A stretch of DNA of 64,000 nt. Source: Candidatus Saccharimonadia bacterium. Its GTDB lineage: Bacteria > Patescibacteriota > Saccharimonadia > UBA4664 > SCTI01. Below are positions 33,331 to 56,887 of the stretch, in pieces. Made by a program: the position numbers and the translations under genes. The notes under the pieces were generated by a model, which was not told the DNA's origin, ran no database searches, and was given only the letters and a program-made list of their open reading frames with translations. The DNA lies in contig JBKJLI010000003.1 in NCBI GenBank assembly GCA_046597065.1, positions 2,807 through 66,806 on the forward strand, given 5' to 3'. How positions within the stretch are numbered: the first letter of the stretch is position 1; the number at the start of each line of letters is the position of its first letter.

Positions 33331-33344
33331 GACATTTCCTCTTT

Positions 33345-33538: not shown

Positions 33539-34051
33539 CTAGCTAAGATCAAGTTTTCTTAGGTCATCGAAGCGATTCAATTGCACCGGAATCATATTGT
33601 CCGGCAGTTCATCTGACTTAAACCATCCGTACTCTGCCGTTTCATCATCTAATACGTCATTATGTTCAACTGGTCGTGCCAGAAAGCTTACAACCCAGCG
33701 ATGCTCACTATGCTTATCACCCGGAAAGCTATCTAAGTAAACGCCCAGTACCCGGCCCAACTCCACCGTCCAGCCGGTTTCCTCTTTGGTTTCCCTAATC
33801 GCGGTTGCGGCGGGCTTTTCGCCGTAGTCAGAGAATCCACCCGGTAGTGCCCAAGTTCCCTTCATCGGATCAATTGCCCTTTTTACTAACAACACCTCCC
33901 CTTTTTCATTTAATGTCAGGGTTTCGGCGCTGGCCGCATTCCTAACTAGCGGCCAAAGTATGCCATGAGTTTTACAGGTGGGCAATTGGTTATTGTAATC
34001 AAATTGGTCACCACATATATAGCACCTTTGAGGTATAGTTTTTTTGCTCAT
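33539..34051 (-). CDS. NUDIX hydrolase with N-terminal Cys4 zinc-ribbon, possibly a GDP-sugar hydrolase
   Basis: Nudix box GGFSDYGEKPAATAIRETKEETGW (G.5E.7REUxEExGU). N-terminal CxxC...CxxH ribbon. Start overlaps the manC stop, which is consistent with the gmm/wcaH role in GDP-fucose loci. Confidence 0.7.
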   Translation of the reverse strand: MSKKTIPQRCYICGDQFDYNNQLPTCKTHGILWPLVRNAASAETLTLNEKGEVLLVKRAIDPMKGTWALPGGFSDYGEKPAATAIRETKEETGWTVELGRVLGVYLDSFPGDKHSEHRWVVSFLARPVEHNDVLDDETAEYGWFKSDELPDNMIPVQLNRFDDLRKLDLS

Positions 34052-35175
34052 AATGAGAGTCCGTTTTTTTGCACTCGCCCAGACAGCTTCTTAGCCGCCT
34101 CGCCCACTAGCTGAGACTGCTCCTTGGCGCAAACCAACAATCCATCTGGTGTATCAACTACAATTACGCCCGATAGACCAATCACTACTACCGGCTTACC
34201 CTGGCTCATCACCATCACGTCATCGCTATCAATTAACTGCACGTCACCCTTAATGGTGTTGTTTTTGGAGTCACTCATCACATTATGCAAATCAAAAAAT
34301 GATCCAATATCAGCCCAGTCAAAACTACCGCTGACAACCATTAAATCCGGCACTTTTTCCATTAAGGCTGTATCAATTTGCTGACTGGGCAATGCTAAAT
34401 ATGACTGCTCCAGCTTTTTACCTTTAATAATGGCATCTTCGAGCGACTCATATCCCAGCATTAAGTCTTTTGCATGCTCCTTCATTTTAGCGAGAAACAC
34501 CGATCGAGGGGCGGCGAACAAACCCAAATTCCACAGGTAATTTCCGTCTTTCAAGTAGCCCTCGGCAACCGTTTGTGAGGGCTTTTCAACAAACTTCACT
34601 ACGTTGGAAACCGACATGCCTCCGCTTTGCTCCAACTCATCGGCCAGCTCCATATACCCAAACCCAGTGGCCGGATAAGTTGGTTTAATGCCAATTAGCG
34701 TTATGCGTTTGTGCTTAGTCGAGGTATTTCCAGCTACTTTTACCGTTTTAGCAAAGGCCGTTTCATCAGAAATGTGATGATCGGCGTGTAAAAACACCAC
34801 CGGTTCATCGTCGGGTTCAATAGTTTGCATATGTGCCATAGCGAGCAAAATGCAAGATGCCGTTCCGCGACGACCAGGTTCAACAATAATGTGTTTGGCA
34901 TCTAGATATGGAAGCTGTTCTGCTACTTCATTAGAATGCGACCGCTCGGTTATCACGTATATCTTACTTGTAACCAAACAAGCTCGCTTGTAGGTGTTCT
35001 GAAGCAGCGAACTTTGGCCGGTTAGTTTAAGTAAGTGTTTGGGATGGTTGCCTTGTGAAAGCGGCCACAGTCGCGTACCTGATCCTCCAGCGATAATTAC
35101 GATAATCATTTCTTGATTATACACGCCTATTTTTGTATAATCGTAAGCAGTTAGGGGCAAACAAATTGGCCGCAA
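34048..35175 (-). CDS. manC: Mannose-1-phosphate guanylyltransferase (GDP-mannose pyrophosphorylase)
   Basis: The track ORF start is 35175. The probable biological start is the internal ATG at ~35109 (MIIVIIAGGSGTRLWPLS...). Nucleotidyltransferase motif IIAGGSGTRLWPLS...PKHLL. A TATAAT box lies 8 nt upstream of that ATG. Confidence 0.8.
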   Translation of the reverse strand: MRPICLPLTAYDYTKIGVYNQEMIIVIIAGGSGTRLWPLSQGNHPKHLLKLTGQSSLLQNTYKRACLVTSKIYVITERSHSNEVAEQLPYLDAKHIIVEPGRRGTASCILLAMAHMQTIEPDDEPVVFLHADHHISDETAFAKTVKVAGNTSTKHKRITLIGIKPTYPATGFGYMELADELEQSGGMSVSNVVKFVEKPSQTVAEGYLKDGNYLWNLGLFAAPRSVFLAKMKEHAKDLMLGYESLEDAIIKGKKLEQSYLALPSQQIDTALMEKVPDLMVVSGSFDWADIGSFFDLHNVMSDSKNNTIKGDVQLIDSDDVMVMSQGKPVVVIGLSGVIVVDTPDGLLVCAKEQSQLVGEAAKKLSGRVQKNGLSL

Positions 35176-35717
35176 AAATATACAAAAACAAAACAGTTTT
35201 AATCACCCTCGTCGTCATCGCAGTCATAGCGATGGGGGCGGCCGTTTACGTTTATATTAAAATGCACCAAGAATCCGATTCTACTCCGGTAAATAAAAAC
35301 CTTGGTCAAGAAACCACTCAAACCAAGCAAAATGCCGGGCCGGCAACCGACAAAACCATTAACAATGGCTCGTCTACTGCGCCCGTGCCAAACCCTAGCC
35401 ATCCGGTAAGCAGCTTAGCCAAGCCAATAGGCCCCAACAATAATACCGGTACAGTAAGCCTATCCGGTGCCACCGGCATGGAGTCGGTTTGTCGTTCGGT
35501 ATCTGGGGCCAGCTGCTATATTCAAGCCAGTAAAGATGGAAAAACGATTAAGGTCTCAGTGGCCAAAACGGTTGGCAGCGATACAGCTAGTGACGGAGTC
35601 ATACTAGATTGGGATGCCAACCAGTTAACTGTCGGAACATGGATCATCCAGGCTGTAGCTAGTAAGGATGGCCAAACCGCCAGCTCTGATCCTCAAACAC
35701 TTAGGGTTAATTCATGA
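35133..35717 (+). CDS. Membrane-anchored S/T/N/P-rich protein with C-terminal Ig-like domain (hypothetical)
   Basis: The start is uncertain: TTG at ~35166 behind an AGGGG RBS, or an upstream codon. It has an N-terminal TM (VLITLVVIAVIAMGAAVYVY), then a low-complexity linker and an ~80-aa beta-rich C-terminal domain with a Cys pair. The stop overlaps the next gene's start. Confidence 0.45.
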   Translation: MYNRKQLGANKLAAKIYKNKTVLITLVVIAVIAMGAAVYVYIKMHQESDSTPVNKNLGQETTQTKQNAGPATDKTINNGSSTAPVPNPSHPVSSLAKPIGPNNNTGTVSLSGATGMESVCRSVSGASCYIQASKDGKTIKVSVAKTVGSDTASDGVILDWDANQLTVGTWIIQAVASKDGQTASSDPQTLRVNS

Positions 35718-38008
35718 AGCATTTATTAAAACTCCCCCTCTTACTTCTTGCCATCGCTTTCACCAGCATCATAAGTGCTGGCTCTGCACATGCTTATAGT
35801 AACTCTCGACTAATGGACGATGTTATTTTTGATAACTCTAATAGTATGAGTGAGAGTCAGATCCAAACCTTCCTAGCTGGAAAGGGGCCATGCTTAGCTA
35901 ATTACAGCGATGTTGACCCAAATTGGAATGGCACCACCTGGAGCTATACGGGTAGCGTGTCGGCCGCACATATTATCTACAAAGCTAGCCAACAATGGGG
36001 CCTTAATCCTCAAGTGATTATTTCGACCCTGCAAAAAGAAGAGAGTCTGATTACCGGCACCAGCTGCGACGCCTGGCGCTACAACTCAGCCATGGGATAC
36101 GGCTGTCCCGATTCCGGCGGCTGCAACGCCAAATACGCCGGCTTTACCCGCCAGGTACTGTGGGGCGCTTGGCAGTTAAAGTTTAATAAAGAACGCGCCT
36201 ACGGTAATACCGCCTGGGACGGCGACGGCGATATTGTCTATGTTGGCCTAATGACCGCCGGCGATCGGCGCCGCTGCACGACCTGCTCGCTGGTTAGCTA
36301 CGATGGCAACGCAACCATAGACGGCCAAGTTATCCATATGGACAATGGCACCACCGCCTCGCTATACACCTACACTCCCCACCTCGGCCAGTCATTCCCG
36401 GGGATATTTGAAGGCTGGTTTGGGAGTGTGCTTGTGCCAACGTATTCATGGCAGCTTGTTGATCAAAGAGTTAAAATTTATGGCACCAATACCGATTTTG
36501 ACCCCACTCCAGGTATTACTGCTGGCGACAGGTTCGTTATTTACTTCAAAGCTCTTAATACTGGTACGGCCACTTGGAGTAATAGCGGTCCCAGCCCTAC
36601 CAGGGCTGGGACTTCACAGCCCTATGATAGAACCAGCGTATTCTGTGAAGTATCTTGGATAAGTTGCAGTCGACCGGTGCAAATGCAAGAAGCCACCGTT
36701 TCCCCCGGCCAAACCGGTACCTTTATGTTCGCGGCCCAGGCTCCAGCCACGCCGGGTACATATAACGAGCGCTTTAATCTTTTGGCGGAGGGAGTCTCCT
36801 GGATGAGCGACATTGGGTTGTATTATCATCTCAAGGTCAACCCGGCTGATTTTAAATACTCACTTGTCAGCGATACGCTTCCTACGCAATTAGCTTCTGG
36901 GTCTAGTGGATCTGGAGCCGTTACTTTGCGCAATGACAGTAACTTCACTTGGTACAATGCACCTAAATTCCCAATCCGAATAGGGGCAACTTCGCCAAAT
37001 GATCGGGTTTCGGCTTTCCGAGACTCGTCATGGATAGGCTCGACGCGCCTGGCAAATCAAGCTGAGTTCTCGGTAGCGCCTGGCCAACAAGCGACATTCA
37101 CCGCCACCCTACATGCTCCTCAGGCTGCCGGTACCTACAATGAATCTCTTGGCCTGGTTGCCGATGGCATTGCCTGGGCCGGCCAATCCTTCAATCACCC
37201 CGTCACAGTAAAGCAAAACTATGATGCCAGCCTAGACTCAACATCAACGTCGATAATCTCCATGGGTGGAGCCGAACGTAAGCTGGTCACCCTTAAATAC
37301 TTAAACACTGGGCTGCTGACTTGGTCCAATGCAGGCGCAAACCCTGTTCGCATTAGTACCAGCTCACCAAGTGATAGAAGTAGTGGATTTTGCTATCAAA
37401 GTTGGATCGCCTGCCATCGACCCACCCAATTACTCGAAAGCTCGGTTGCACCGGGCCAAACCGGTACTTTTCAGTTTTATGTTGAGGGTCGTCCATGGTT
37501 TAATTCAAATCCATACTTTGAGAGCTTTGGCCCCATAGCAGAGGGTTTGGTAAGATTTGGAGCTGTGGCCCAAGTTCGAGTAAACTACACTCACCAGTCA
37601 TACTCGTGGAGTTTGACCGATCAATACGCACATACAGTTGGGCCCGGCCCAACACCTGTAGACATGGCTACCATGAGCCCTGGCCAGACCATCATTATCG
37701 GTTTTAAGGCTAGAAATACGGGTAGTGCTACCTGGCTCAATGACGGTGGTTTCCCGCTCAGAGTTGCAACATCGCGACCGACTGACAGATCAAGCGCCTT
37801 CTGTTCAAATACGTGGATCGCCTGCCATCGTCCGGCACAAATGCTCGAGGCCTCTGTGGCACCAAATCAGATTGGTACTTTTGAGTTTGAGTTTAAGGCT
37901 CCGACCGGCAGTCCGGGGCTACATAGTGAATATTTTGTACCAATCATCGAAAGCTACTCTTACCTAAGCGATATAGGCCTATATTATCGGACGAATGTCT
38001 CTCCATAG
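35714..38008 (+). CDS. Large secreted protein: signal peptide, N-terminal lysozyme/lytic-transglycosylase-like domain, and four tandem ~120-aa beta-sandwich-like repeats
   Basis: Signal peptide MKHLLKLPLLLLAIAFTSIISAGSAHA. N-domain has ASQQWGLNPQVIISTLQKEES, resembling the SLT consensus (A...G..P..L.AIA.qES). The same block recurs in the CHAP protein at 62413..63606. Each of four repeats carries NTG.ATWSN...DR.S.F...WI.C.RP.Q..E..V.PGQ.GTF.F...P...GTYNE.F.L.AEG. Confidence 0.65.
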   Translation: MKHLLKLPLLLLAIAFTSIISAGSAHAYSNSRLMDDVIFDNSNSMSESQIQTFLAGKGPCLANYSDVDPNWNGTTWSYTGSVSAAHIIYKASQQWGLNPQVIISTLQKEESLITGTSCDAWRYNSAMGYGCPDSGGCNAKYAGFTRQVLWGAWQLKFNKERAYGNTAWDGDGDIVYVGLMTAGDRRRCTTCSLVSYDGNATIDGQVIHMDNGTTASLYTYTPHLGQSFPGIFEGWFGSVLVPTYSWQLVDQRVKIYGTNTDFDPTPGITAGDRFVIYFKALNTGTATWSNSGPSPTRAGTSQPYDRTSVFCEVSWISCSRPVQMQEATVSPGQTGTFMFAAQAPATPGTYNERFNLLAEGVSWMSDIGLYYHLKVNPADFKYSLVSDTLPTQLASGSSGSGAVTLRNDSNFTWYNAPKFPIRIGATSPNDRVSAFRDSSWIGSTRLANQAEFSVAPGQQATFTATLHAPQAAGTYNESLGLVADGIAWAGQSFNHPVTVKQNYDASLDSTSTSIISMGGAERKLVTLKYLNTGLLTWSNAGANPVRISTSSPSDRSSGFCYQSWIACHRPTQLLESSVAPGQTGTFQFYVEGRPWFNSNPYFESFGPIAEGLVRFGAVAQVRVNYTHQSYSWSLTDQYAHTVGPGPTPVDMATMSPGQTIIIGFKARNTGSATWLNDGGFPLRVATSRPTDRSSAFCSNTWIACHRPAQMLEASVAPNQIGTFEFEFKAPTGSPGLHSEYFVPIIESYSYLSDIGLYYRTNVSP
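36440..38005 (+). repeat. Four tandem in-frame ~360-390 nt coding repeats (protein-level domain repeats) within the 764-aa secreted protein
   Basis: Repeats begin near residues 243, 372, 498 and 618. Conserved anchor residues are listed in the CDS entry. Nucleotide identity is low and the repeats are diverged. Confidence 0.6.
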
Positions 38009-38056
38009 CACTTAGGACATTTTACTGCTGAGCTGGTTTTTGGTAGAATCCCTGAT

Positions 38057-39010
38057 ATGTCGATCCCATCCCCAGTGTTTTGGAATAAGAAAAAAGTGCT
38101 TGTTACCGGCGGTAGCGGGTTTCTTGGCTCACGCTTGGTCGCTGAGTTGAATAAGCTTGGAGCCAATGTCTTCGCCCCGAGCCACAGCGAGTTCGATCTA
38201 GTGCATGAAGATCAAATTAAAAAAATGTACGCCAAATACCCCGAAATTGATACCGTTATTCATTTGGCGGCTGTTGTCGGTGGTATTGGCGCTAATCGGG
38301 AGCACCCCGGGTCGTTTATGTACGACAATCTCATGATGGGCACCCAGCTATTACATCAAGCTTATGTCAATAATATCCCCAAGTTTGTTGCTCTAGGAAC
38401 CGTTTGTGCTTACCCAAAACACACACCGGTACCCTTTAAAGAAGATGACCTCTGGAACGGCTACCCAGAAGAGACTAATGCTCCATACGGCCTGGCGAAA
38501 AAAATGATGCTTGTCCAAAGCCAGGGTTACCGAGAAGAGTATGGATATAACTCCATATTTCTGTTGCCGGTAAATCTTTATGGTCCTGGAGACAATTTTA
38601 ACCCGTCTAGCTCGCATGTTATACCTGCCTTAATCAAGAAGTGTGTTGATGCCGTTGAAAATAATCAAGACGAGATTGAGGTTTGGGGTGACGGATCAGC
38701 CAGTCGTGAATTTCTATACGTTGATGATGCCGTACGCGGCATAATTCTTTCAGCTGAGAAATATAATAAAAGTGAGCCAGTAAACCTTGGATCTGCCTTT
38801 GAACTAACTATTAAGCAGTTAGTGGATATTATCACTAGGGAAACTGGGTTTAAGGGAAAGGTTGTTTGGGATACTTCAAAGCCAAATGGACAACCTAGAC
38901 GTAAACTCGATGTATCTCGCGCCAAGAATGAGTTCGGTTTTCTCTCAAAGATCAGCTTCGACGAGGGCTTGAGCAAGACGATTGATTGGTACAAAAGGCA
39001 CCAGAGTTGA
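38057..39010 (+). CDS. fcl: GDP-L-fucose synthase (GDP-4-keto-6-deoxy-D-mannose 3,5-epimerase/4-reductase)
   Basis: Rossmann motif [10 protein letters not shown], catalytic Y..K (APYGLAKK), and blocks [53 protein letters not shown] closely matching Fcl. An extended -10 (TGGTAGAAT) lies upstream. Confidence 0.85.
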
Positions 39011-39828
39011 GCACAACTATCATAAGGCCAAGCCGTAAGCTAACAATTGACCTAGCTGAGCTTTGGCGATACCGAGAATTGTTCTACTATTTTGCCTGGC
39101 GTGACATTAAGGTGCGCTACAAGCAAACGGCTATTGGTGCAGGCTGGGCCATCTTTCAACCTTTCATCACAATGGTTGTCTTTACGCTATTTTTTAATAA
39201 AGTTGCAGGCATTCAGGCAAACGGCGCCATACCATACGCTATTTTTTCGTACTCTGGATTATTGTTTTGGCAGTACTTTTCTAACGCTTTAACCCGTTCG
39301 AGCAATAGCCTGGTTGATAATCAGTCGGTAATAACAAAAATCTACTTCCCGCGGATTATCCCCCCCATTTCTAGCACCATTGTGGCTCTAATTGATTTTT
39401 TCTTTGCATTTTTAATTTACCTTGGCCTGCTTGTCTACTTCCAAATATCCCCTGGAGTAGTCGGCATTCTGTTGTTTATACCCGCAATTATTATTACCTT
39501 TATTGCGGCGGCCGGTTTGGGATTATATCTCGCGGCTCTCAACGTTAAGTATCGCGACGTCAAGCAGGCGCTGCCATTTTTTATTCAAACCGGGCTTTTT
39601 TTAACTCCCGTTATCTACCCTGTGTCTCTTGTGCCGGAAAAATACCAGTGGTTGCTGTACTTAAACCCGATGACTGGAGTTATTACTACAATTCGCCATA
39701 CTTCACTCCACGTTGGTGATCTCAATTGGGGTCTAGTTAGTATTTCAGTGATATCCGCTCTCCTGATGTTTGCATTTGGGCTGTACTACTTCAAGACTAA
39801 AGAACGTGAATTTGCGGACATAATATGA
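38986..39828 (+). CDS. ABC-2 type polysaccharide exporter permease (Wzm/TagG-like)
   Basis: 280 aa with 6 TM. N-terminal [24 protein letters not shown] block typical of Wzm/KpsM-type permeases. Confidence 0.8.
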
Positions 39829-41081
39829 CAGATCCAGTCGTTCAAATTAGCGGTCTGTCCAAGGTGTACCAAATTGGCCATGAGGACCAGGTTGATCGAG
39901 GATCCTTGCGAGAAGCGATTACTCGAACCCTTAAAAAGCCGAGCGAGCTTTTCACCGGCCACCGAGTAGCCCAAGAGAAATTCTGGGCTCTTAAAGATAT
40001 AGCCGTGGAGATCAACCGAGGTGATGTGGTTGGCCTGATTGGCAGAAATGGATCCGGCAAGTCAACCCTACTAAAAATACTGTCGCAGATTGTCGAGCCG
40101 TCTGAAGGAGAGGTAATACTCAACGGCAACAGCGCCAGCTTGCTTGAAGTTGGCACCGGTTTTCACCCTGAGCTCACCGGGCGCGAAAACATCTATTTTA
40201 ATGGTTCGATTTTAGGTATGAGTCGTAAAGAAATTGAAGCTAAATTTGCCGAAATTGTCGAGTTCTCGGAAATTGAAAGATTTCTCGACACACCGGTGAA
40301 GTTCTACTCTTCTGGTATGTACGTACGTCTAGCATTTGCGGTCGCGGCTCACCTTGAGCCCGATATCCTCATTGTCGACGAGGTGCTGGCGGTCGGTGAT
40401 GCTGCATTCCAACGTAAAAGCTTAGGCAAGATGCGTGACGCCACTCAAAATGCGCAACGTACGGTTATTTTTGTAAGCCACAGCATGGAATCCATTCAGA
40501 GTATTTGCAATAAGTGCATTTGGCTAGACTCTGGTAAGGTGATCGCCATGGGAGAAACCTCCAAAATAGTTGAGCGGTATATGTCGTCGTCAGGAGCACT
40601 CGAGCGCCCGGCGCTTAAAGATCGTACCGACCGCAGGGGTAATGGCGATGTTCGCCTAACAAGCCTAAAGGTACAAGACTCAATTCAAGAAGACAAGCGA
40701 GTTTCCCTGAACCTGCAGTTAAATAATCTAACATCAAGTGTGTTCAAGGATGCAAAGCTATCGATCGACATTTACGATGGTACGGGCGTCCACGTGAGCA
40801 ACCTCTTAAACTACACCGTCAAGCAGCAAGTGAACATTAAACCTGGCTCAAATAAGATTCAAATTGAAATAAGCAATTTCTGCCTAGCCCCCGGGCGCTA
40901 CAGTCTGAACGTTTTTATTGCGTCAGACCAATTAAATAAGAAGCTATTCGATTGGGTCGAAGATGCCTCCCAACTCTTGGTCCAGCCATATGATTTCTAC
41001 GGCACAGGTAGCGTCCCGAGCTTTAGTGGTAAGTTTGTATACTTAGACTATGATTACAAAGCTGAAAAACCGAGTCGGTAG
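39825..41081 (+). CDS. ABC polysaccharide exporter ATP-binding protein (Wzt/TagH-like) with ~170-aa C-terminal extension (candidate carbohydrate-binding domain)
   Basis: NBD with GRNGSGKST, LSGGM-like YSSGMYVRLAFAVAA, DEVLAVGD, H-loop SHSM. A predicted beta-rich C-terminal domain follows (RLTSLKVQDS...FVYLDYDY). Confidence 0.8.
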   Translation: MTDPVVQISGLSKVYQIGHEDQVDRGSLREAITRTLKKPSELFTGHRVAQEKFWALKDIAVEINRGDVVGLIGRNGSGKSTLLKILSQIVEPSEGEVILNGNSASLLEVGTGFHPELTGRENIYFNGSILGMSRKEIEAKFAEIVEFSEIERFLDTPVKFYSSGMYVRLAFAVAAHLEPDILIVDEVLAVGDAAFQRKSLGKMRDATQNAQRTVIFVSHSMESIQSICNKCIWLDSGKVIAMGETSKIVERYMSSSGALERPALKDRTDRRGNGDVRLTSLKVQDSIQEDKRVSLNLQLNNLTSSVFKDAKLSIDIYDGTGVHVSNLLNYTVKQQVNIKPGSNKIQIEISNFCLAPGRYSLNVFIASDQLNKKLFDWVEDASQLLVQPYDFYGTGSVPSFSGKFVYLDYDYKAEKPSR

Positions 41082-41742
41082 GCTTCTGTCTCGCCAAAAT
41101 ATCGGCAATGGTATTGTTTCCTATTCACAAGAAGGTGAAGATATGGTTCTCAGACGCTTTGTGGGCGACTCAGCAAAGGGCTTCTATATTGATATAGGAG
41201 CACACCATCCCTCGCTTTACTCAAATACAAACTACTTCTACCAAAGGGGTTGGAGCGGTATAAATATTGACGCAGACCCAACCCTAATGGAGGCATTTTC
41301 TAAATATAGAACCCGAGACATAAACCTAGCGGCTGGAGTGGCAACAGACTCTGGTGATCTTACTTTTTATATTTTTAATGATCGGGCCCTCAACACCTTT
41401 AACCCAGAATTGGCAAAAGAGCGCAGCGAGCTGGAGCATTATCACATAATTGAAGAAGTTAAGATAAAAGTACAACCCCTCGGGGCACTACTCGAAGCTC
41501 ACCTTCCCAAAGAACAATCAATTGACTTTATGTCTGTCGATACCGAAAGCTTAGATTTTGATGTCTTACGTTCAAATAACTGGGGAAAGTTCCGGCCAAG
41601 ATATATCTTGGTTGAGTGCTTGGAAATAAATGATTTGAGTAAAATTGCTCGTGATCCGATAGCGATATTTTTGACTGAAAAGAATTACAAGCCCGTTGCA
41701 AAAACTCTTTATACGGTTCTCTTTGAGGACTGCAAAAAGTGA
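41050..41742 (+). CDS. FkbM-family SAM-dependent methyltransferase
   Basis: GFYIDIGAHHPSLYSNT...GINIDADP...LTFYIFN matches the FkbM domain core. The start is probably an internal ATG. Confidence 0.6.
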   Translation: MITKLKNRVGRLLSRQNIGNGIVSYSQEGEDMVLRRFVGDSAKGFYIDIGAHHPSLYSNTNYFYQRGWSGINIDADPTLMEAFSKYRTRDINLAAGVATDSGDLTFYIFNDRALNTFNPELAKERSELEHYHIIEEVKIKVQPLGALLEAHLPKEQSIDFMSVDTESLDFDVLRSNNWGKFRPRYILVECLEINDLSKIARDPIAIFLTEKNYKPVAKTLYTVLFEDCKK

Positions 41743-43304: not shown

Positions 43305-43306
43305 AT

Positions 43307-47103: not shown

Positions 47104-48019
47104 AAAAACGCCCAGCTTGGCGCTTGTAACGCCAGTGTTCAATCGTAAGAATTACACTAAAAGATTTTTGACCTCATTGAACTCTCAAACCTATCGAGAT
47201 TTTGTCGTCATCATTACTGACGACGGCTCTAGCGATGGCACCTCAGGCATGATTAAAGAACTTTTTCCAGATGTAATCCTATTAACTGGTGATGGTAATT
47301 TATGGTGGTCGGGTGGCACAAACTTGGCAGCCAAGCACGCTATTGCGCTTGGGATCCCCCTCATACTCACTATTAATGATGATATTGAGCTGCCTGATGA
47401 TTACCTCGAAAATATTATGGCTTGTGGTAAAAAAAATCCCCATGCGTTAATTGGATCAAAAGTATGTTACAGAGATGACCCCAAGCGTGTATGGTACTTT
47501 GGCGCAAAATTTAGCACTAAAACTGGTGATATGGCCCACATTACGGGTCAAGATAGCGACTTTACCAAAACGGCCGCCTCGGAGTGGTTGACGGGGATGG
47601 GGGTGCTAATCCCGGCTGATGTTTTTAATAAAGTAGGATATTTTAATCGCTCTGAATTTCCCCAGTACTTTGGCGACGCTGAATTTTCGGTTAGGGCAAA
47701 AAATGCCGGATACGGTCTACTGGTCTGTCCGGATGCTCGAATTTATGCTGATGTCAGTGCCCAATGGGTGCTCAATCAGATATCTAAGCCGACTCTGCGT
47801 TTCCCGATAGAGCTGCTTACCTCTATCAGATCTCCCTACCAGCTAAAAACTAGGCTCCTATTCTACCGGCGACACTGGCCAAGACACTGGCAACTATCGG
47901 CATTAAAACTTTACGGCTGGACTTTAAAAGGTCTCTATATTAGTTATTTTGCAGCCTACATTAAAAAATTCCTGGGGATTAAGTCCTTTAAAGGGCTTTT
48001 CAATCGGGAGCAAAGATGA
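47096..48019 (+). CDS. GT2-family glycosyltransferase
   Basis: LALVTPVFNRKNYTKRFLTSLNSQTYRDFVVIITDDGSSDGT. DxD-like INDDIEL. Confidence 0.8.
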   Translation: MHKKTPSLALVTPVFNRKNYTKRFLTSLNSQTYRDFVVIITDDGSSDGTSGMIKELFPDVILLTGDGNLWWSGGTNLAAKHAIALGIPLILTINDDIELPDDYLENIMACGKKNPHALIGSKVCYRDDPKRVWYFGAKFSTKTGDMAHITGQDSDFTKTAASEWLTGMGVLIPADVFNKVGYFNRSEFPQYFGDAEFSVRAKNAGYGLLVCPDARIYADVSAQWVLNQISKPTLRFPIELLTSIRSPYQLKTRLLFYRRHWPRHWQLSALKLYGWTLKGLYISYFAAYIKKFLGIKSFKGLFNREQR

Positions 48020-49155
48020 GAGTCGCGATTGAAGCGAGTATACTGACGCGCGACCTTAAAACCGGCACGTACCATTATTTGCGCAATCTACTGGAACCAC
48101 TAAGCACCCATGGTGGTGGCAATACTTACTCCCTGTTCTACTTTAGGACTAGACACGCCCTTGAGCTTGGAGCGGCTACTGGAAAGTTTAAGTCACATCT
48201 CATATGGTGGTTCCCAAGAAGATTATATAACTTGCTTTTGCGTACGCCCTTTGCCCCGCCAATCGACCTATTGGCTGGGATAAAAGCTGATGTTTATATA
48301 TTTCCAGCATTTGTTAGATGGCCGCTGCTTTGGAACCAGAAGTCCATTGTTATCATCTACGACCTTAGTTTTATTACTTCTCAAAAAACTCAGCTGTCCT
48401 GGTTTAACTGGTATCTTAACCGGGCGGTTCCAAAATCCGTCAAGAAAGCCACCAGGGTTATAACTATATCTAAAAATAGTGAGCGAGAAATAATTGAGAA
48501 TCTGGGTGTAGACCCAACAAAAATTAGTGTGATAACTCCGGCAGTCGATCATGGAGTATATCGACCAGCAACCAGTCCAGAGGTCGCCGCGGTTAAGCAA
48601 AAATATGGTATTAAGAGTAAATACATTCTGTTTCTAGGGACCCTCGAACCGAGAAAAAATGTGACCGGTATCATTGAAGCGTATCGCTTGCTACGCCCTG
48701 AAATAAAGAAGCAGTACCAGCTGGTGTTGGCGGGTGGAAAGGGTTGGCTCGATGGAACGATACTTGATTTAATCAATCAGCTGCCTCGTGAGCAGGTTGT
48801 GAAAACCGATTACGTTGAAGAGGCAGACGTACCGGCACTATACTCGGGGAGCTCTGTGTTTGTTTATCCCTCACTTTACGAAGGCTGGGGGATGCAAGTA
48901 CTTGAGGCCATGGCGTGCGGGGTGCCAGTGGTTACGGCAAATAACTCCTCGCTACCTGAGGTTGCCAGTGACGCCGCTATCTTAGTTGAAGCAACAGACA
49001 CCTTGGCAATTTCCAAAGCAATCAATAAAGTCATAACTGACCCCGCCCTAGCAGCAGCTATGCGAGCAAAGGGTATTGCCCACGCCAAAAAGTTTACCTG
49101 GGAGGATAGCGCAGAAAAACTAAAAGCGGTTATAGAGCAAGTCGACAAGCAGTAA
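48016..49155 (+). CDS. GT4-family glycosyltransferase
   Basis: YPSLYEGWGMQVLEAMACGVPVVTANNSSLPEVASDAA (EX7E). Confidence 0.8.
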   Translation: MRVAIEASILTRDLKTGTYHYLRNLLEPLSTHGGGNTYSLFYFRTRHALELGAATGKFKSHLIWWFPRRLYNLLLRTPFAPPIDLLAGIKADVYIFPAFVRWPLLWNQKSIVIIYDLSFITSQKTQLSWFNWYLNRAVPKSVKKATRVITISKNSEREIIENLGVDPTKISVITPAVDHGVYRPATSPEVAAVKQKYGIKSKYILFLGTLEPRKNVTGIIEAYRLLRPEIKKQYQLVLAGGKGWLDGTILDLINQLPREQVVKTDYVEEADVPALYSGSSVFVYPSLYEGWGMQVLEAMACGVPVVTANNSSLPEVASDAAILVEATDTLAISKAINKVITDPALAAAMRAKGIAHAKKFTWEDSAEKLKAVIEQVDKQ

Positions 49156-50148
49156 CTATCGGCGCTGCTTGGCGCCCTCAATCTCTAGATCATTTTTAAC
49201 CATCCTTGAGATTAACTGCTGAAAATTAACTTCCGGCTTCCAACCTAACTGTTTGTTAGCCTTGGCTGGATCGGCCAAGAGCATGTCGACTTCGGCCGGG
49301 CGCATAAAACGTTTGTCTTGTACCACATAAGGTTTCCAGTCCTTGATGCCCGCCTCCGCGAAGGCTACATCGAGTAGCTCTTTGATTGAGTGAGTTTCGC
49401 CCGTGCCGAGCACATAATCATCTGGTTTGTCTTGCTGCATCATCATCCACATACCGCGCACATAGTCCCCTGCAAAGCCCCAGTCCCGCTTAGCATCTAG
49501 GTTGCCCATAACAAGCTTGTCTTGCAAACCCAGCTTGATTCTGGCCACGCTGCTAGTCACTTTCCGGGTCACGAACTCATAACCTCGCCGCGGAGACTCG
49601 TGGTTGAATAGGATGCCGCAAGAGGCATGTATACCGTAACTCTCTCGGTAGTTTATGGTCATAAAATGACCATAAAGCTTGGCCGCACCATACGGGCTTC
49701 TGGGATAAAAAGGAGTTTTCTCGCTTTGAGCGTGGTTTTGGACTCCTCCGAACATCTCGCTGGTAGATGCTTGGTAGAAACGAATGTTACCCTTTCCGCC
49801 ATCAAATATCCGTACGGCCTCTAAGATCCTCGTTACCCCCAAGCCACTAATGTTGCCGGTAATCTCGGGCTGATCAAATGACAGCTTAACGAAACTAATT
49901 GCCCCTAAGTTATAGACTTCATCGGGCTGAGATTCTTCAAAAGCTCTCAATATTGAGCCCATATCAGTCAGATCGCCCTCAATTAGCCTAACGCCGGGGA
50001 TCTCGCGCTCAACTTCTGAACGCTTGGGGTTATGCTGGCCACGTATTAGGCCATAAACTTCGTAGTTCTTACTTAGTAGTAGCTCGGCTAAGTACATGCC
50101 GTCTTGACCAGTGATTCCGGTTACTAGTGCGCGCTTTGGGTTACTCAT
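49156..50148 (-). CDS. gmd: GDP-mannose 4,6-dehydratase
   Basis: ALVTGITGQDGMYLAELLL (Rossmann + GxTGQDG), YGAAKLYGHFMTINYRESYG (Y..K catalytic), 330 aa. This is the only minus-strand gene inside the glycan locus. Confidence 0.9.
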   Translation of the reverse strand: MSNPKRALVTGITGQDGMYLAELLLSKNYEVYGLIRGQHNPKRSEVEREIPGVRLIEGDLTDMGSILRAFEESQPDEVYNLGAISFVKLSFDQPEITGNISGLGVTRILEAVRIFDGGKGNIRFYQASTSEMFGGVQNHAQSEKTPFYPRSPYGAAKLYGHFMTINYRESYGIHASCGILFNHESPRRGYEFVTRKVTSSVARIKLGLQDKLVMGNLDAKRDWGFAGDYVRGMWMMMQQDKPDDYVLGTGETHSIKELLDVAFAEAGIKDWKPYVVQDKRFMRPAEVDMLLADPAKANKQLGWKPEVNFQQLISRMVKNDLEIEGAKQRR

Positions 50149-50200
50149 AAATATCCTTTTCTACTGATTGCCGTAATGGTATTTATGATACCATTACCCT

Positions 50201-51511
50201 GTGAGATTTATTAAACAAATCTGGCCTTTTTTATTGCTCGCCAGCCTTCCGTTTGAGCGTATTCCATCGTATGACCTAGCTATTTTGGGGCATAGCGTTA
50301 CAGTTAGGTCGGGCTTGATCATTGGCGTTGTTGGCATTGCTCTTTTCGGCTGGATAACCGCTAAGAATCTAAAACTGAATTTCAAGGAACCCGAAACCTG
50401 GCTGGTAAGCTATCTGGTCGTGGCGCTACTGTCTATTTTATTCACCCTCAATCTTCCACGTTCGCTAATTGCGGCCACCGCCACACTGATTGTCTTAGGC
50501 ACGTCCCTTGTTGTGGCGCAGGTTTTCGAAAAAGTGGCATTGGAAAAAGTTTATATAACCCTGTTCATAGCGAGTGTCGTAGTCTCGATCATTGGTCTCT
50601 ACCAATTCTTTGGCGATGCTTTTGGATTGCCCAGAAGCCTTACCGGTCTACGCGAAATATACACTAAGCAGGTATTCGGGTTCCCTCGAGTTCAGTCGGT
50701 TAGCCTGGAGCCACTATTTTTTGCTAACTTCTTGATTATTCCTATACTACTAACTGTAGGCCTGCTCTACACAAAAAAAATTAGCGGCCCTAAGTACTGG
50801 CTCGGCCTGTTTCTGTTCACTTTAACCCTTGGCCTGACGCTATCACGCGGAGGCTACTGGGCAACTGCAGGCGGACTTATAATCGTCGTTGTGGCACTCC
50901 GGAAACTCGGATCGTTAAAACGCGTTGCGGCACTATCGGCCACCATGCTGCTTGGTGTCGCCTCGGCGGTCTTAATGATTTACGTCACCGCTCAAATTAC
51001 AGGTGGTGGTAACAAGGGCGATGCTGCAGTTAGTAACTATGTGCATCAATCGAAGAAAGTCAGCTCGGCTCAAAGTGCCGATTCCGATCGAGTGGTTAAT
51101 CGCAAACTGGCTCTGGAGGCTTTTGCCGAACGCCCAGTAATCGGTAATGGGCTGGGAGCATTTGGCACCTACGCCCAGCGCAATGACCCGGTGTTTTACG
51201 CGTCTACTGATGCCGCGACTGTAAACAACGAATATCTCGAGATTTTGGCCGAAACTGGGTTACTCGGCTTTATTTCTCTGGCAGGCTTCGTAATCACATT
51301 GATGATTTCGGGCATCAATGCATTAAATAAAACTACGGACACTAACGTAAAAGCATGGATAGGATCGTTACTGGCTATCTGCGTCGCTTTTGGCATTCAA
51401 TACAACTCATTTTCCACGCTCTACATTATGCAAATATGGGTGATGATTGGAATCTTAATGGCCTTAGTTGCAAATGCAAATTCGTCGAACAGCTCAAAAT
51501 CTAAAGCCTAA
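50201..51511 (+). CDS. Wzy_C-family protein (O-antigen ligase / polymerase / O-oligosaccharyltransferase-like), about 11 TM
   Basis: Polytopic. TLGLTLSRGGYWA sits in a large external loop and resembles the Wzy_C signature shared by WaaL and PglL/PilO. Start is uncertain. Confidence 0.5.
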   Translation: MRFIKQIWPFLLLASLPFERIPSYDLAILGHSVTVRSGLIIGVVGIALFGWITAKNLKLNFKEPETWLVSYLVVALLSILFTLNLPRSLIAATATLIVLGTSLVVAQVFEKVALEKVYITLFIASVVVSIIGLYQFFGDAFGLPRSLTGLREIYTKQVFGFPRVQSVSLEPLFFANFLIIPILLTVGLLYTKKISGPKYWLGLFLFTLTLGLTLSRGGYWATAGGLIIVVVALRKLGSLKRVAALSATMLLGVASAVLMIYVTAQITGGGNKGDAAVSNYVHQSKKVSSAQSADSDRVVNRKLALEAFAERPVIGNGLGAFGTYAQRNDPVFYASTDAATVNNEYLEILAETGLLGFISLAGFVITLMISGINALNKTTDTNVKAWIGSLLAICVAFGIQYNSFSTLYIMQIWVMIGILMALVANANSSNSSKSKA

Positions 51512-53009
51512 AAGCTTATTGCTCCTACTTAAGCGTGTGCGCACTGAATGGCAACAACGCGTATATTTTGATTACTTATTTTTAGCAATAATCTGTCTAT
51601 CTGCGGTCGCTCTCAATATAGTTTGGAGAAATATTGAAACCAGGCCGCCGCACTGGGATATGGCAAGACACCTCTGGACCAGCTTGCAATACTTTAATAA
51701 CTGGTCAAACCATAGTATTAATGCGCTACTCAACCAGTATTTTTATTACCCTCCCCTAATCTATTGGGTCAGCATCCCAGTCTACTTAATCTTTGGTGCA
51801 TCGGTTAGCTCTGCCGTTTTAGTAAGTAACCTGTTCTTACCAATACTAGTATTTTCAACTTACGGGATAGGCCGCAGACTTTGGGGTCGGCTTGTCGGGC
51901 TATCTTCGGCTATTGTTGTAATGTCTTATCCAATTGTCACCAGCCAGTTCAAGGAATACCAGTTAGATGCGCCGCTAATGGCTATGGTTGCGCTGGCCGT
52001 TCTAGCTTTAATTCTAGCTCGTGAGTTTTCAATTAAGTGGATGAGTATGGCATTTGGGGTCGTATTTGGGTTGGGGATGCTAACGAAGTGGACCTTCATT
52101 GTAGCCATAGCCGCTCCACTGGCAATGGCATTAATAATAATGTCTTTGCGGGTCTATAAAACTCGAAACTATAGACCCCTCCAATATGTTTTTGTGGCGG
52201 GATTAATCGCCTATACTATAGCCAGTATCTGGTACCTGCCCAACCAAGTGCAGTTGAGGATCGATATGAGCAGCAACGGGGTGGCTCAAGCTCTCGCAGA
52301 GGGCGACCCAATACCTGGATCTTTTAATGCATATAGCTGGTACGCGGCTACACTGCTTAACGTACAAGTCTATCTGCTGCCAATACTACTGTTCTTTGTC
52401 GGCATTACCCAGAGCATCGCCCACAGAAAATCCTTCACTATCAATAAGTACCTATGGGCGACATTGATTGGATGCTATATTGGTTTTTCCTACCTTCCCA
52501 ATAAGGATGCTCGTTATACTATGGTGCTTTTGCCCGCCCTGGCAGTGCTTTCGGTTTATTGGATTCATTATTTGAAAAACCGGATAAAGTTGACGGCTGC
52601 CATGGCCATCATGCTAGTAAGTTTACTTATGTACTTCACTTTCAGCTTCGGCCTGCCCTTGGCACCGAAGCAAATTAGTTTAAATCGCCCAAATGTAACG
52701 CTGTTTGCCCAGCACGGATATATTATCGGCGCACCAACTAACGAGCTATGGCATCAAGAGGAAATATTTAAGTCTGTTGCCGGTAAAAGTTTGTCTATAA
52801 ATTACTCGGGACCGGAATCAATCTGGTTTAACAATTGGGGCATAGCATACTACTCAAACCTTTACCATGTGGCGCTGGTGTCTGACTCCCGAAAGGCTGA
52901 TCGCGTTGCTATCAGATCTAGCTCAACGGTTGTTGCGCCCGACGGTTTTCTAGAAAAACATATCTATTGCCTGCCAGATGGCACCAATCTATATATTTAT
53001 CAGAAATAG
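51468..53009 (+). CDS. GT-C fold membrane glycosyltransferase (ArnT/PMT-like, GT39/GT83-type)
   Basis: 12-13 TM. The first external loop has RPPHWDMARHLW and YYPPLIYW, typical of ArnT/PMT-like GT-C enzymes. Start is uncertain. Confidence 0.45.
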   Translation: MQMQIRRTAQNLKPKSLLLLLKRVRTEWQQRVYFDYLFLAIICLSAVALNIVWRNIETRPPHWDMARHLWTSLQYFNNWSNHSINALLNQYFYYPPLIYWVSIPVYLIFGASVSSAVLVSNLFLPILVFSTYGIGRRLWGRLVGLSSAIVVMSYPIVTSQFKEYQLDAPLMAMVALAVLALILAREFSIKWMSMAFGVVFGLGMLTKWTFIVAIAAPLAMALIIMSLRVYKTRNYRPLQYVFVAGLIAYTIASIWYLPNQVQLRIDMSSNGVAQALAEGDPIPGSFNAYSWYAATLLNVQVYLLPILLFFVGITQSIAHRKSFTINKYLWATLIGCYIGFSYLPNKDARYTMVLLPALAVLSVYWIHYLKNRIKLTAAMAIMLVSLLMYFTFSFGLPLAPKQISLNRPNVTLFAQHGYIIGAPTNELWHQEEIFKSVAGKSLSINYSGPESIWFNNWGIAYYSNLYHVALVSDSRKADRVAIRSSSTVVAPDGFLEKHIYCLPDGTNLYIYQK

Positions 53010-53033
53010 CTGTTCAGCCCTATAATAGTCTCT

Positions 53034-54143
53034 ATGAAAATCATTATTGATGGCCGGATGATTGGCTGGACCGGAATTGGCCGCTACTCCATCGAACTGT
53101 TAAACCACCTCCAAGAGATAGACCAAGATAACGAGTACGTTGTGCTGGTTCGTAGCGTTGACTGGGATAAGTGGCAGCCAATCAGCTCTAATTTTAATCG
53201 CGTACGCTGCGACATTGAGCCTTACAGTTTAGCCGAGCAGCTTAAGCTGCCCTGGCAAATCCGCAAGCTACGGCCAGACATTGTGCATTTTTTAAGCATT
53301 AACTCCCCTATTATCGGGCACTTCCGACGGGTTACTACGGTGCATGACCTAACACTTATCGATTATGACGTTGCCCGTGGGTCGTGGATTAAGCAACAAG
53401 TTTACGGCTTAAAGCGATTGGTGCTGCGGATTCACGTTAATCTAGTTCTTAGGCGTTCTCGGCGAGTGATAGCTGATACCGAGTTTGGGCGGCAGAATTT
53501 AGTTAAGAGAAATTTGATTCGACCCAACAACGGCCACGCCATTCATTTGGGCGCCGGTATCGCGACGAATAACCTTATCAAACCTTCCCCCTATCCCCCA
53601 CTAATAAACCAAAGGTTTATCCTGGCTGTCGGCAATGCATTCCCCTACAAAAACCTCCAACGACTCATTGATGCTTATGCCCTGGCTCGGCCTAGGGAAA
53701 CCAAACTAGTGCTAGTTGGTAAGCCTGACTATTTTTATGAGCAGCTACAAACTTACGTAAAAAACAATAAAATTGTTGGGGTTCACTTTGCCGGCTTTGT
53801 GCCCGATACTCAGCTAGCCTGGCTATATCAACAAACTAGCTTATATGTTTTTCCTAGCCTCAGTGAAGGCTTTGGGCTACCGGGCTTAGAGGCCATGGCC
53901 TACGGCGCGCCGGTCGCTAGCAGCAACGCCACTTGTTTGCCTGAAGTCTACGGTGAGGCCGCTGCCTACTTTGATCCGAACGACACCGTCGACATCGCCC
54001 GGGTCATCACCGAGTTGCTGAATGACGCCAAGCTCAGCTCCAAGTTAATAAAAGCTGGGCACGAGCAGGTCGCCAAGTACTCCTGGGAGCGCATGGCCCA
54101 CCAAACCCTTGAGGTTTATAATCGAGCGCCGGGGGCAGAATAA
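53034..54143 (+). CDS. GT4-family glycosyltransferase
   Basis: FPSLSEGFGLPGLEAMAYGAPVASSNATCLPEVYGEAA (EX7E). Confidence 0.8.
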   Translation: MKIIIDGRMIGWTGIGRYSIELLNHLQEIDQDNEYVVLVRSVDWDKWQPISSNFNRVRCDIEPYSLAEQLKLPWQIRKLRPDIVHFLSINSPIIGHFRRVTTVHDLTLIDYDVARGSWIKQQVYGLKRLVLRIHVNLVLRRSRRVIADTEFGRQNLVKRNLIRPNNGHAIHLGAGIATNNLIKPSPYPPLINQRFILAVGNAFPYKNLQRLIDAYALARPRETKLVLVGKPDYFYEQLQTYVKNNKIVGVHFAGFVPDTQLAWLYQQTSLYVFPSLSEGFGLPGLEAMAYGAPVASSNATCLPEVYGEAAAYFDPNDTVDIARVITELLNDAKLSSKLIKAGHEQVAKYSWERMAHQTLEVYNRAPGAE

Positions 54144-54151
54144 GTAATTCA

Positions 54152-55561
54152 ATGTATATGAATTTGCTTAGATTCAGAAAGCTACTTGCCCAGAAAAAAT
54201 ACTGGGTTATTGTGCTTATTGCAGTCCTAACTATCTCAATGGGGGCACGGTTTAATATAAAAATGGGACTTTCGGGTGACGAGCCGCACTACCTAGTTAT
54301 GGCAAATAGCCTCAAAGTCGATCATGATCTGAATGTAAAAAATGATTACGGGCAAAAAAGATACTTGCCGTACTACCCCGACACATTAGAGCCGCACATA
54401 AATTGGGCTCTGGTACAACAGTCCGGCGAACGTTGGCATTCAATACACGGGCCAGGTTTACCTCTACTAATTCTGCCCGGGGTCGTTTTTAGCAAGCGGC
54501 TTGGGGCACTCTTGATAATGATTGGCTTCGGATTGCTTGCAGTTGTTGCCGGTATATCTATTTCAAAACTAGTAGCAAGCAAAGGGGCTTCTTTTTTAGC
54601 CGGGCTGATGTTGGCATTAAGTGTTCCATTCCTCGCTCTAGCTGGCTATATCTTCCCAGATATAGTGATCGGATCGTTAACTGCATTAACATTTTTGCTA
54701 ATTAACATGAAATCCAAAACTCTTTGGCGAGATGTGGCGATTGGGGTATTATCGGCAACACTCATTTGGGTGCACGTCAAAACCAGTCTAGTTGCGGGAT
54801 CTCTCATTTTAATTGCAGTTTGGTACATTATTGAAAGTTCTAAGGATCTTACCAATCGCAATCGCAGGCTGGCAGCATTACTTGTGCCTTTCATTCTTTT
54901 GACCGGCCTACTTCAATTCAAGTTTTACCAATGGTTCGGTGTGTTCACTCCAAATGGTATCTATAAGGGTAACAATCAGCTATTTCAGCTGAATCCGTTC
55001 AAGTCACTCTTAGCAATACTATTCGATCCATTTAAGGGTCTGCTAATAATGAGTCCTATATGGTTTTGTGCCGTCGTGGGTTTGCCAGAATGGTATAAGC
55101 GAAATAAGAAGCAATTGTTATTTGTATTAGCAATAGTATTGCCGAGTTTTTTCATTCAATCTACTTTTGACGATTGGGCCGGAGGATGGAGCCCGCCAGC
55201 ACGATATACCGTTCAATATTTACCAATCCTGCTGCCAGCACTCGCGCTTGGCCTGGAGCTAATGCTGAGTAACGCAAAGATGCGGATCTACGCATTTACC
55301 CTCATTGTGGCACAAGTTACTATCGCCGCGACCTATATATTATTCAGGACTCCATGGGACTTCGCTGGTCACGAAGCTCCGTTTATTGTTGATTTGAAAG
55401 ACTCATTACATTTGAATTGGCTACCTACAATATTTTTCGACAACCATGCAAACCCTACAAAAGCTGGGATTGTAGTTATTTTAAGTAGCTTTTTCGTGAT
55501 GACTGCTTTATTAATTTTTAAAAAGTTTAGTCAATCAAGAAACAGCCGTAAAATAAGCTAA
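54152..55561 (+). CDS. Polytopic membrane protein, GT-C-like (candidate second lipid-linked-sugar transferase)
   Basis: About 12 TM. The first external loop has GLSGDEPHYLVMANSL (DE..Y motif as in ArnT/PMT/AftA-type GT-C). Confidence 0.4.
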   Translation: MYMNLLRFRKLLAQKKYWVIVLIAVLTISMGARFNIKMGLSGDEPHYLVMANSLKVDHDLNVKNDYGQKRYLPYYPDTLEPHINWALVQQSGERWHSIHGPGLPLLILPGVVFSKRLGALLIMIGFGLLAVVAGISISKLVASKGASFLAGLMLALSVPFLALAGYIFPDIVIGSLTALTFLLINMKSKTLWRDVAIGVLSATLIWVHVKTSLVAGSLILIAVWYIIESSKDLTNRNRRLAALLVPFILLTGLLQFKFYQWFGVFTPNGIYKGNNQLFQLNPFKSLLAILFDPFKGLLIMSPIWFCAVVGLPEWYKRNKKQLLFVLAIVLPSFFIQSTFDDWAGGWSPPARYTVQYLPILLPALALGLELMLSNAKMRIYAFTLIVAQVTIAATYILFRTPWDFAGHEAPFIVDLKDSLHLNWLPTIFFDNHANPTKAGIVVILSSFFVMTALLIFKKFSQSRNSRKIS

Positions 55562-56873: not shown

Positions 56874-56887
56874 ATCTAAACCTGTCT

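Follow-up and report, generated by a model that had tools for sequence, protein, structure and literature searches.

Here, we describe a gene cluster at positions 33539 to 55561 of a 64,000-nucleotide stretch of DNA from a Candidatus Saccharimonadia bacterium (contig JBKJLI010000003.1 of GenBank assembly GCA_046597065.1; the whole stretch is referred to below as the window). We lean towards the view that this locus directs the assembly of a fucose-containing surface glycan and its export by a cap-reading Wzm/Wzt transporter, the cap, the gating of export, the carrier and the acceptor being the parts of this view that we infer. The argument is built on genes for GDP-L-fucose supply, on a Wzt protein with a carbohydrate-binding domain (CBD) and on three methyltransferase genes lying directly after wzt. 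The host, a tiny parasitic bacterium, belongs to the Saccharibacteria, which live attached to other bacteria and whose own surface chemistry has hardly been described. Genes were called from the open reading frame (ORF) listing together with Pfam and NCBIfam scans, and transmembrane (TM) segments were assigned from hydropathy. All genes named in an earlier note on this DNA, prepared from the sequence alone, were found in this way, and its span of 34048-55561 falls short only at the edge, where the NUDIX gene that it had included (33539-34051) sits just outside that start. The earlier note had made no mention of the genes for a Wzy_C-family protein, a PMT_2 membrane glycosyltransferase (GT) of the GT-C type, an LA_3751-like protein, an immunoglobulin-like (Ig) repeat protein and a small anchored protein, all of which are described below.

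Judged by their family and structure matches, ManC, Gmd and Fcl can provide GDP-L-fucose, and the supply that had been proposed earlier stands on a Gmd above its cut-off, an Fcl recognized in the Protein Data Bank (PDB) and a ManC recognized by its domains. Gmd, a GDP-mannose 4,6-dehydratase (49156..50148, minus strand), scored 421.7 bits against Pfam GDP_Man_Dehyd and 423.2 bits against TIGR01472, over the cut-off of 415. For Fcl, a GDP-L-fucose synthase (GDP-4-keto-6-deoxymannose 3,5-epimerase/4-reductase; 38057..39010, plus strand), the best PDB match was the E. coli GDP-fucose synthetase 1bsv, aligned over the full length (E 1.8e-63), and its score of 288.6 bits against NF047922 lay under the NCBIfam equivalog cut-off of 500; it is 76% identical in L001, a locus from a named Saccharibacteria metagenome-assembled genome (MAG). 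ManC, a mannose-1-phosphate guanylyltransferase (34048..35175, minus strand), carries the Pfam domains NTP_transferase and ManC_GMP_beta-helix without the phosphomannose isomerase (PMI) domain and aligns with positions 2-346 of the 467 in TIGR01479. Its homologue in L081, the locus of a close relative, has 347 aa, and the real start of ManC probably lies ~28 codons further in than called.

Export appears to depend on an ABC transporter, as had been claimed, with both Wzm and Wzt present and zero matches to Wzx-type flippase families in the locus in the Pfam and NCBIfam scans. Wzm, the ABC-2 permease (38986..39828, plus strand), scored 64 bits against Pfam ABC2_membrane and matched the NCBIfam galactan Wzm/RfbD and KpsM models under their cut-offs. 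Wzt (39825..41081, plus strand) is a protein of 418 aa that combines a nucleotide-binding domain at aa 1-255 (ABC_tran) with a CBD at aa 256-418 (Wzt_C, PF14524; 37.5 bits versus a cut-off of 30.4). The best PDB relatives of the transporter were WzmWzt and TarGH/TagGH. Export of a wall teichoic acid by a TagGH/TarGH system was considered and rejected, as the TagD, TagF and TarL families were absent from all window ORFs and the C-terminal domain is Wzt_C.

Sequence and modelled structure agree that the carbohydrate-binding domain of Wzt, at aa 256-418, is genuine. The beta-rich C-terminal extension had been put at ~170 aa; its nature was correctly recognized, and its length is 163 aa. An AlphaFold2 (AF2) model built on a 100-sequence alignment (99 homologues) reached a predicted local distance difference test (pLDDT) score of 82.6 overall and 88-97 within the CBD, compared with only 31.8 for the single-sequence model, and folded the CBD into a beta-sandwich of eight strands, after which comes one more C-terminal strand that stands apart. 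Foldseek aligned the Wzt model with 8dku across 410 columns (E 2.4e-37), and a profile of the CBD only retrieved 6o14/8dky (Aquifex aeolicus CBD, E 2.4e-13) and 5hno (R. terrigena CBD, E 0.02). The profile was needed, since phmmer with the CBD sequence alone reached 6o14 at E 0.14 only. At E<=1, the CBD profile did not reach the E. coli O9a carbohydrate-binding module (CBM), 2R5O, and the structural match lists were filled by hits to the nucleotide-binding domain. In A. aeolicus, the CBD binds 3-O-methyl-mannose or 3-O-methyl-rhamnose, and Trp362 stacks against the methyl group (PMC9445017). Trp377 of the Saccharimonadia Wzt aligns with this residue, and 41 of the 48 closest homologues have retained it. 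As a predictor of a methyltransferase neighbour across loci, the pocket Trp gave no significant result (5/5 versus 29/45, p=0.16), in a comparison where distant CBDs align poorly.

The three methyltransferase genes that had been placed directly after wzt are all there, in an operon-like arrangement with translational coupling to wzt. An FkbM-family methyltransferase (41050..41742, plus strand; Pfam Methyltransf_21, 66.9 bits) overlaps the end of wzt by 32 nt and is followed by a 521-aa fusion of a GT-A glycosyltransferase with a class I S-adenosylmethionine (SAM) methyltransferase (41739..43304, plus strand; Pfam Methyltransf_11/23/25/31 and a weak GNT-I match) and by a stand-alone class I SAM methyltransferase of 226 aa (43307..43987, plus strand; Pfam Methyltransf_23, 95.5 bits). 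The N-terminal part of the fusion is a GnT-I-like GT-A domain with an EDD motif, and the best NCBIfam match of the protein is the oligosaccharide methyltransferase MftM. Around 100 full-length homologues share this GT-A/methyltransferase architecture; none is characterized, and many are publicly annotated as ubiquinone methylases (UbiE/UbiG). A PDB search with the FkbM protein returned nothing useful, and the stand-alone class I enzyme matched 3cc8, a putative methyltransferase (E 2.5e-41).

This arrangement recurs beyond the window. ORFs were called in 82 fetched loci and searched with locally built profiles, and the 72 loci with enough downstream sequence were used to compare long Wzt proteins (380 aa or more) with short ones (280 aa or fewer). 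A methyltransferase gene lay within <=5 kb in 34 of the 50 long-Wzt loci and in 1 of the 22 short-Wzt loci (Fisher p=3e-7, uncorrected for phylogeny), and stood immediately downstream in 18/50 and 0/22, respectively. Relatives whose Wzt is 59-95% identical retain the order wzt-FkbM-fusion, and the FkbM gene occupies the same position in L081, L082 and L022. An iterated hidden Markov model (HMM) of the GT-A domain drifted to generic GT2 enzymes (48 matches), and plain phmmer matches were used instead; these fell only downstream of long wzt genes, at <=2.4 kb, in seven loci (L003, L004, L022, L031, L051, L081 and L082). The taxa concerned are Saccharibacteria, Omnitrophota (fused), Spirulina (split into adjacent genes), Methanosarcina and Bacteroidia. 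Overlap with wzt, fusion to a GT-A domain and recurrent adjacency support the assignment of the methyltransferases to the glycan pathway. The GT-A/methyltransferase fusion is a candidate capping enzyme.

We propose the following pathway. Six soluble GT2/GT4 enzymes, fed by GDP-L-fucose and other nucleotide sugars, would extend a polyprenyl-phosphate-linked chain in the cytoplasm, following priming by an enzyme encoded outside the window. The six genes had been counted in the earlier note, and Pfam resolved them into two GT2 and four GT4 enzymes, one of the latter a weak match. Five form a run at 43953..49155 on the plus strand, comprising GT2 (43953-44783), the weakly matching GT4 (44747-45970), GT4 (45967-47103), GT2 (47096-48019) and GT4 (48016-49155), with zero TM segments in these cytoplasmic proteins and 85-93% identity with L081; the sixth is a GT4 enzyme (53034..54143, plus strand; Pfam Glycos_transf_1, 104 bits). 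A cap at the non-reducing end would then halt growth, probably with the GT-A/methyltransferase fusion adding a sugar and O-methylating it, and with the FkbM and class I methyltransferases adding further methyl groups. The CBD of Wzt would bind the methylated end, licensing export through the Wzm channel, as in A. aeolicus, E. coli O8/O9a and the S-layer glycan pathway of Geobacillus, and by analogy with these systems we infer that chain length is controlled by terminal O-methylation. Outside the membrane, the Wzy_C-family protein would move the glycan to an acceptor other than lipopolysaccharide (LPS), which could be a surface protein, a wall anchor or a lipid anchor, and two GT-C-like proteins (the PMT_2 and LA_3751-like products) may decorate the glycan.

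Several observations weigh against this proposal. Any position on the polymer could carry the methyl groups. No counterpart was found of the terminator WbdD, on which chain-length control had earlier been modelled, with Pfam finding no kinase domain and PDB searches with the three methyltransferases returning no WbdD-like protein; nor was a coiled-coil ruler seen, as judged by eye, whereas the characterized Klebsiella and E. coli terminators all carry one (PMC11231755). The enrichment statistics for long Wzt proteins ignore phylogeny, the short ones being mostly from Clostridia, and 16 of the 50 long-Wzt loci are without a nearby methyltransferase, so the presence of a CBD alone does not imply a methyl cap. 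Neither a priming phosphoglycosyltransferase (WecA/WbaP-type; Bac_transf, Glycos_transf_4) nor a LytR-CpsA-Psr (LCP) ligase was found in the 64-kb window, and the monoderm status of the host is taken from the literature on the Candidate Phyla Radiation (CPR), not from this genome. Finally, Leu300, Thr346 and Ala348 of the A. aeolicus methyl pocket correspond here to Asp315, Asn362 and Phe364, residues that are also conserved inside this Wzt clade; because the pocket residues differ, the ligand is not the same as in A. aeolicus.

The main rival takes up several of these points, and holds that methylation decorates the repeat unit internally while the CBD reads some other terminal signal, such as the sugar that the GT-A domain adds, or simply serves as a tether for the polymer. 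We regard it as possible but on the unlikely side. Three methyltransferases exceed the need of a single cap, and their complement varies between loci, L082 having two and L001 being without FkbM; the altered pocket is unlike one built for methyl binding in A. aeolicus, and CBDs are known to read nonmethyl caps, for example Kdo (PMC9445017; PMC11231755). Against these stand the conservation of the methyl-stacking Trp, the tight and recurrent adjacency of methyltransferase genes to long wzt genes, and the role of methyl as the cap in characterized cases where a methyltransferase lies beside a CBD-bearing Wzt. The combination of Trp377 with a changed pocket fits, without proving, a methyl-reading pocket with another sugar specificity.

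The second rival concerns the right-hand end of the locus, where the Wzy_C-family protein (50201..51511, plus strand) scored 59.2 bits against Pfam Wzy_C, versus a cut-off of 31.7, and has ~9-10 TM segments and a large external loop at aa 260-354. From its family and topology, it is a candidate for the ligase or O-oligosaccharyltransferase that would act on the glycan after export. It is followed by a PMT_2/ArnT-like GT-C membrane glycosyltransferase (51468..53009, plus strand; Pfam PMT_2, 47.8 bits; ~7 or more TM segments), by the sixth GT2/GT4 gene and by a 10-TM putative glycosyltransferase weakly resembling LA_3751/LA_3752 (54152..55561, plus strand; NF047440, 29.2 bits versus a cut-off of 200). 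The Wzy_C and PMT_2 proteins matched zero NCBIfam families, even at E<=1. We think it rather unlikely that this block (50201-55561) is a separate pathway, be it a Wzy-type polymerase or a protein O-glycosylation route fed by polyprenyl-phosphate-sugar, with an LCP enzyme from another locus joining the ABC-exported polymer to peptidoglycan. Such a reading would accommodate the position of the block beyond the convergent gmd, the lack of a Wzy_C gene within 10 kb in L082 and the inclusion of polymerases in the Wzy_C Pfam family, together with a divergence from L081 that sets Wzy_C (54% identity) apart from the left block (85-97%). It is countered by L002, which likewise has a Wzy_C gene directly after gmd, by the lack of a Wzx flippase in the locus and by the precedent of Geobacillus, where a Wzy_C protein is tied to a Wzm/Wzt pathway.

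L081 carries a Wzt 95% identical to the one studied here, its flanking CMAS, LexA and VanW genes are 81-92% identical, and between manC and gmd it has the same gene order, with identities of 76-97%; the more distant L082, as well as L001, retains the same neighbourhood. The Wzy_C gene (50201-51511) shares 54% identity with its counterpart at 20377-21257 of L081, compared with 85-97% for neighbouring locus genes, which suggests that the right-hand block, with its ligase and GT-C genes, has been exchanged or is fast-evolving. At the opposite edge, a 313-aa Glu/Ala/Arg-rich ORF without a family match and the NUDIX gene (together 32389-34051, minus strand) are both absent from L081, where VanW directly adjoins ManC; by this comparison, the charged ORF and the NUDIX gene are a small two-gene insertion at the locus edge. 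For the locus as a whole, the horizontal acquisition proposed in the earlier note found no support, given its ordinary composition, its synteny in relatives and a divergence no greater than that of the housekeeping flanks. The description of the locus as AT-richer is true against the ATP-synthase and dnaA genes only and not against the window as a whole: GC is 0.460 in the locus versus 0.470 in the window (per-gene GC p=0.06; third-position GC, GC3, p=0.23), and other stretches of the window fall lower, at 0.39-0.44.

The host lineage bears directly on the acceptor. The nearest Wzt loci among GTDB genomes belong to Candidatus Saccharibacteria MAGs, the named Wzt homologues are from Saccharibacteria or Saccharimonadales, and the named close relatives of the DnaA protein are all from Saccharimonadales, Saccharimonadia or Patescibacteria. 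An envelope without an outer membrane has been proposed for CPR bacteria (bioRxiv 10.1101/2025.01.22.634366), and family scans of all ORFs found no lipid A or core genes in the 64-kb window. Since the host belongs to the Saccharimonadia within a radiation proposed to be without an outer membrane, the product would not be an LPS O-antigen and its acceptor would not be lipid A-core. The E. coli O8/O9a frame of the earlier note, which implies LPS, is unlikely on these grounds. A classical O-antigen locus of that type, with a WaaL ligase joining the polymer onto lipid A-core, would contain the same standard parts (Wzm, a CBD-bearing Wzt, methyltransferases and a protein of the Wzy_C "O-antigen ligase" family), and is nonetheless highly improbable in view of the host, the empty lipid A and core searches of the window and the failure to find a WbdD-like protein.

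It is just as improbable that the methyltransferases have lipids or small molecules as substrates and only happen to neighbour the glycan genes: generic best PDB and NCBIfam matches, all under cut-offs (UbiG, BioC and phosphoethanolamine N-methyltransferase), and the UbiE/UbiG names of public homologues speak for such substrates, whereas the fusion of one methyltransferase to a glycosyltransferase domain argues against them, as do coding regions that overlap wzt, an association with long Wzt proteins that spans phyla and the best NCBIfam match of the fusion to an oligosaccharide methyltransferase. The FkbM family, moreover, includes NoeI. This enzyme methylates the fucose of Nod factors (PMC4881576).

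Two genes upstream of fcl-wzm-wzt, conserved only in Saccharibacteria-type loci, offer possible acceptors for the glycan. The first encodes a small surface protein of 194 aa (35133..35717, plus strand) with an N-terminal TM anchor at aa 22-40, a linker rich in Ser, Thr and Pro (S/T/P-rich) and a beta-rich C-terminal part, and an iterated HMM matched it in 10 loci. The second encodes a secreted protein of 764 aa (35714..38008, plus strand) with a signal peptide, an N-terminal domain of ~240 aa without a family and NBR1-type Ig-like repeats (Pfam N_BRCA1_IG, 62 bits, three stretches); the gene is syntenic in L001, L002, L007, L009, L011, L012, L013, L026, L081 and L082. PDB searches with the 764-aa protein and with the Wzy_C protein returned nothing useful. 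This Ig-repeat protein may be a wall-associated protein or a glycan acceptor, and together with the S/T/P-rich protein it is a candidate glycosylation target or wall-associated partner. S-layer and SLH families had no match in the window. For the pilins of Saccharibacteria, glycosylation is so far a prediction, and Saccharibacterial glycosylation was termed "unexplored" in a recent study of TM7x (PMC11623550). We speculate, while holding it to be rather improbable in this full form, that Saccharibacteria conserve an O-antigen-like "cap, check, export, ligate" pathway with a new terminator module (a GnT-I-like GT-A domain next to or fused with a methyltransferase) shared with archaea and several bacterial phyla, in which the Wzy_C protein loads a methyl-fucose-capped glycan onto surface proteins (Ig-repeat, S/T/P-rich or type IV pilins). 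If true, such a glycan would shape host recognition, or phage or immune evasion, in an episymbiotic lifestyle.

The layout of the locus is compact. Plus-strand genes at ~35.1-49.2 kb form a tightly packed, mostly overlapping series, to which gmd is convergent, and a second plus-strand block begins beyond gmd. The NUDIX hydrolase (33539..34051, minus strand; Pfam NUDIX, 86 bits) overlaps manC by 4 nt and weakly resembles a GDP-mannose mannosyl hydrolase, scoring 38 bits against NF011963, far under the cut-off. The best sigma70-like site near the gene for the small surface protein was at 35113-35141, and promoter-like and terminator-like sites were not above chance expectation.

Other features of the window lie on either side of the locus. 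At 55558-61457, rnpA-yidC-jag (minus strand) and dnaA-dnaN-recF (plus strand) stand in the gene order of a replication origin, and transcription of the glycan operon, on the plus strand, would run towards dnaA; E. coli-type DnaA boxes near dnaA were not enriched (7 found versus 14 expected), and the GC skew keeps its sign there. A histidine kinase and response regulator pair at 11844-13360 has a GC of 0.39, markedly under that of the DNA around it, and stands out in composition more than the glycan locus does. Genes for a DsbB/DsbA-like pair, a membrane flavoprotein resembling ferric reductases and a cytochrome b5-like protein lie side by side at 8742-11851, a hint that this reduced CPR genome may provide for disulfide formation outside the cytoplasm. 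The window also holds a phosphoketolase and acetate kinase pair and a cyclopropane-fatty-acyl-phospholipid synthase gene (16691-20145 and 28532-29710), the latter adjoining LexA in L081 and L082 as well.

A literature search found no paper that names Patescibacteria together with Wzt. The locus is a concrete, conserved and experimentally tractable candidate for the main Saccharibacterial surface glycan, offering a defined nucleotide-sugar supply, a transporter with a testable binding domain and a candidate ligase. It also draws attention to a GT-A/methyltransferase family, now misannotated as ubiquinone methylases, that travels with CBD-bearing Wzt proteins in both bacteria and archaea, where it may terminate chains in many lineages. 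As a general mechanism, this is well-established ground, and the value of the locus lies in its host lineage and candidate terminator family, not in a new principle. What is new is the lineage, whose identity as Saccharimonadia implies an acceptor other than LPS, the cross-phylum distribution of the candidate terminator family and the conserved surface-protein neighbours.

Among known systems, E. coli O8/O9a and Klebsiella pneumoniae O3/O5/O7 (WbdD, ORF6-O7; 2R5O) share the logic proposed here, in which polymerization is followed by a methyl or methyl-phosphate cap and by CBM-gated export, and differ in that the Saccharimonadia locus shows no kinase domain, no WbdD match, no coiled-coil ruler by eye and no WbdA-type mannan or rhamnan synthesis. 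The Rhizobium etli O-antigen is said to end in a tri-O-methyl-fucose cap, a parallel that we do not use as evidence. For the common polysaccharide antigen of Pseudomonas syringae and P. aeruginosa, loci have been described that couple wzm-wzt with a bifunctional GT-O-methyltransferase for a GDP-mannose-derived 6-deoxyhexose polymer (PMC7820976); the likeness is one of description, and there a diderm makes a D-rhamnan that is linked to LPS. Across its two domains, Wzt is closest among solved structures to WzmWzt of A. aeolicus (8dku, 7k2t, 6o14, 8dky; PMC9445017), at 32% overall identity. The two share the CBD fold and the methyl-stacking Trp (Trp362 there, Trp377 here), and A. aeolicus caps its chains with an O-methylated sugar, a 6-deoxyhexose or a hexose, that stems from GDP-mannose; A. 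aeolicus differs in being a diderm whose polymer is ligated to LPS.

By analogy, the closest worked-out counterpart is the S-layer glycan pathway of Geobacillus stearothermophilus NRS 2004/3a, whose slg cluster has overlapping wzm-wzt-wsaE genes, a GT-methyltransferase fusion (WsaE) that makes a 2-O-methyl cap and a Wzy_C protein (WsaB) that is the protein transferase, with the Geobacillus Wzt predicted to bind the methylated end (PMC2943079). The systems differ in their sugar, which is supplied as dTDP-L-rhamnose in Geobacillus and would here be L-fucose from GDP-mannose, and in the build of the fusion, since WsaE places the methyltransferase first and follows it with two GT domains, whereas here a single GT-A domain precedes the methyltransferase. 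The Saccharimonadia cluster also has two extra methyltransferases and is without a WbaP-type primer or a recognizable S-layer protein gene. The likeness to WsaE and WsaB is one of domain descriptions. In common, the two systems would have a monoderm host, a 6-deoxyhexose polymer made in the cytoplasm, overlapping wzm, wzt and next gene, a multidomain GT/methyltransferase protein and a Wzy_C-domain protein, for which the role of transferase to a non-LPS acceptor is described in Geobacillus and predicted in Saccharimonadia.

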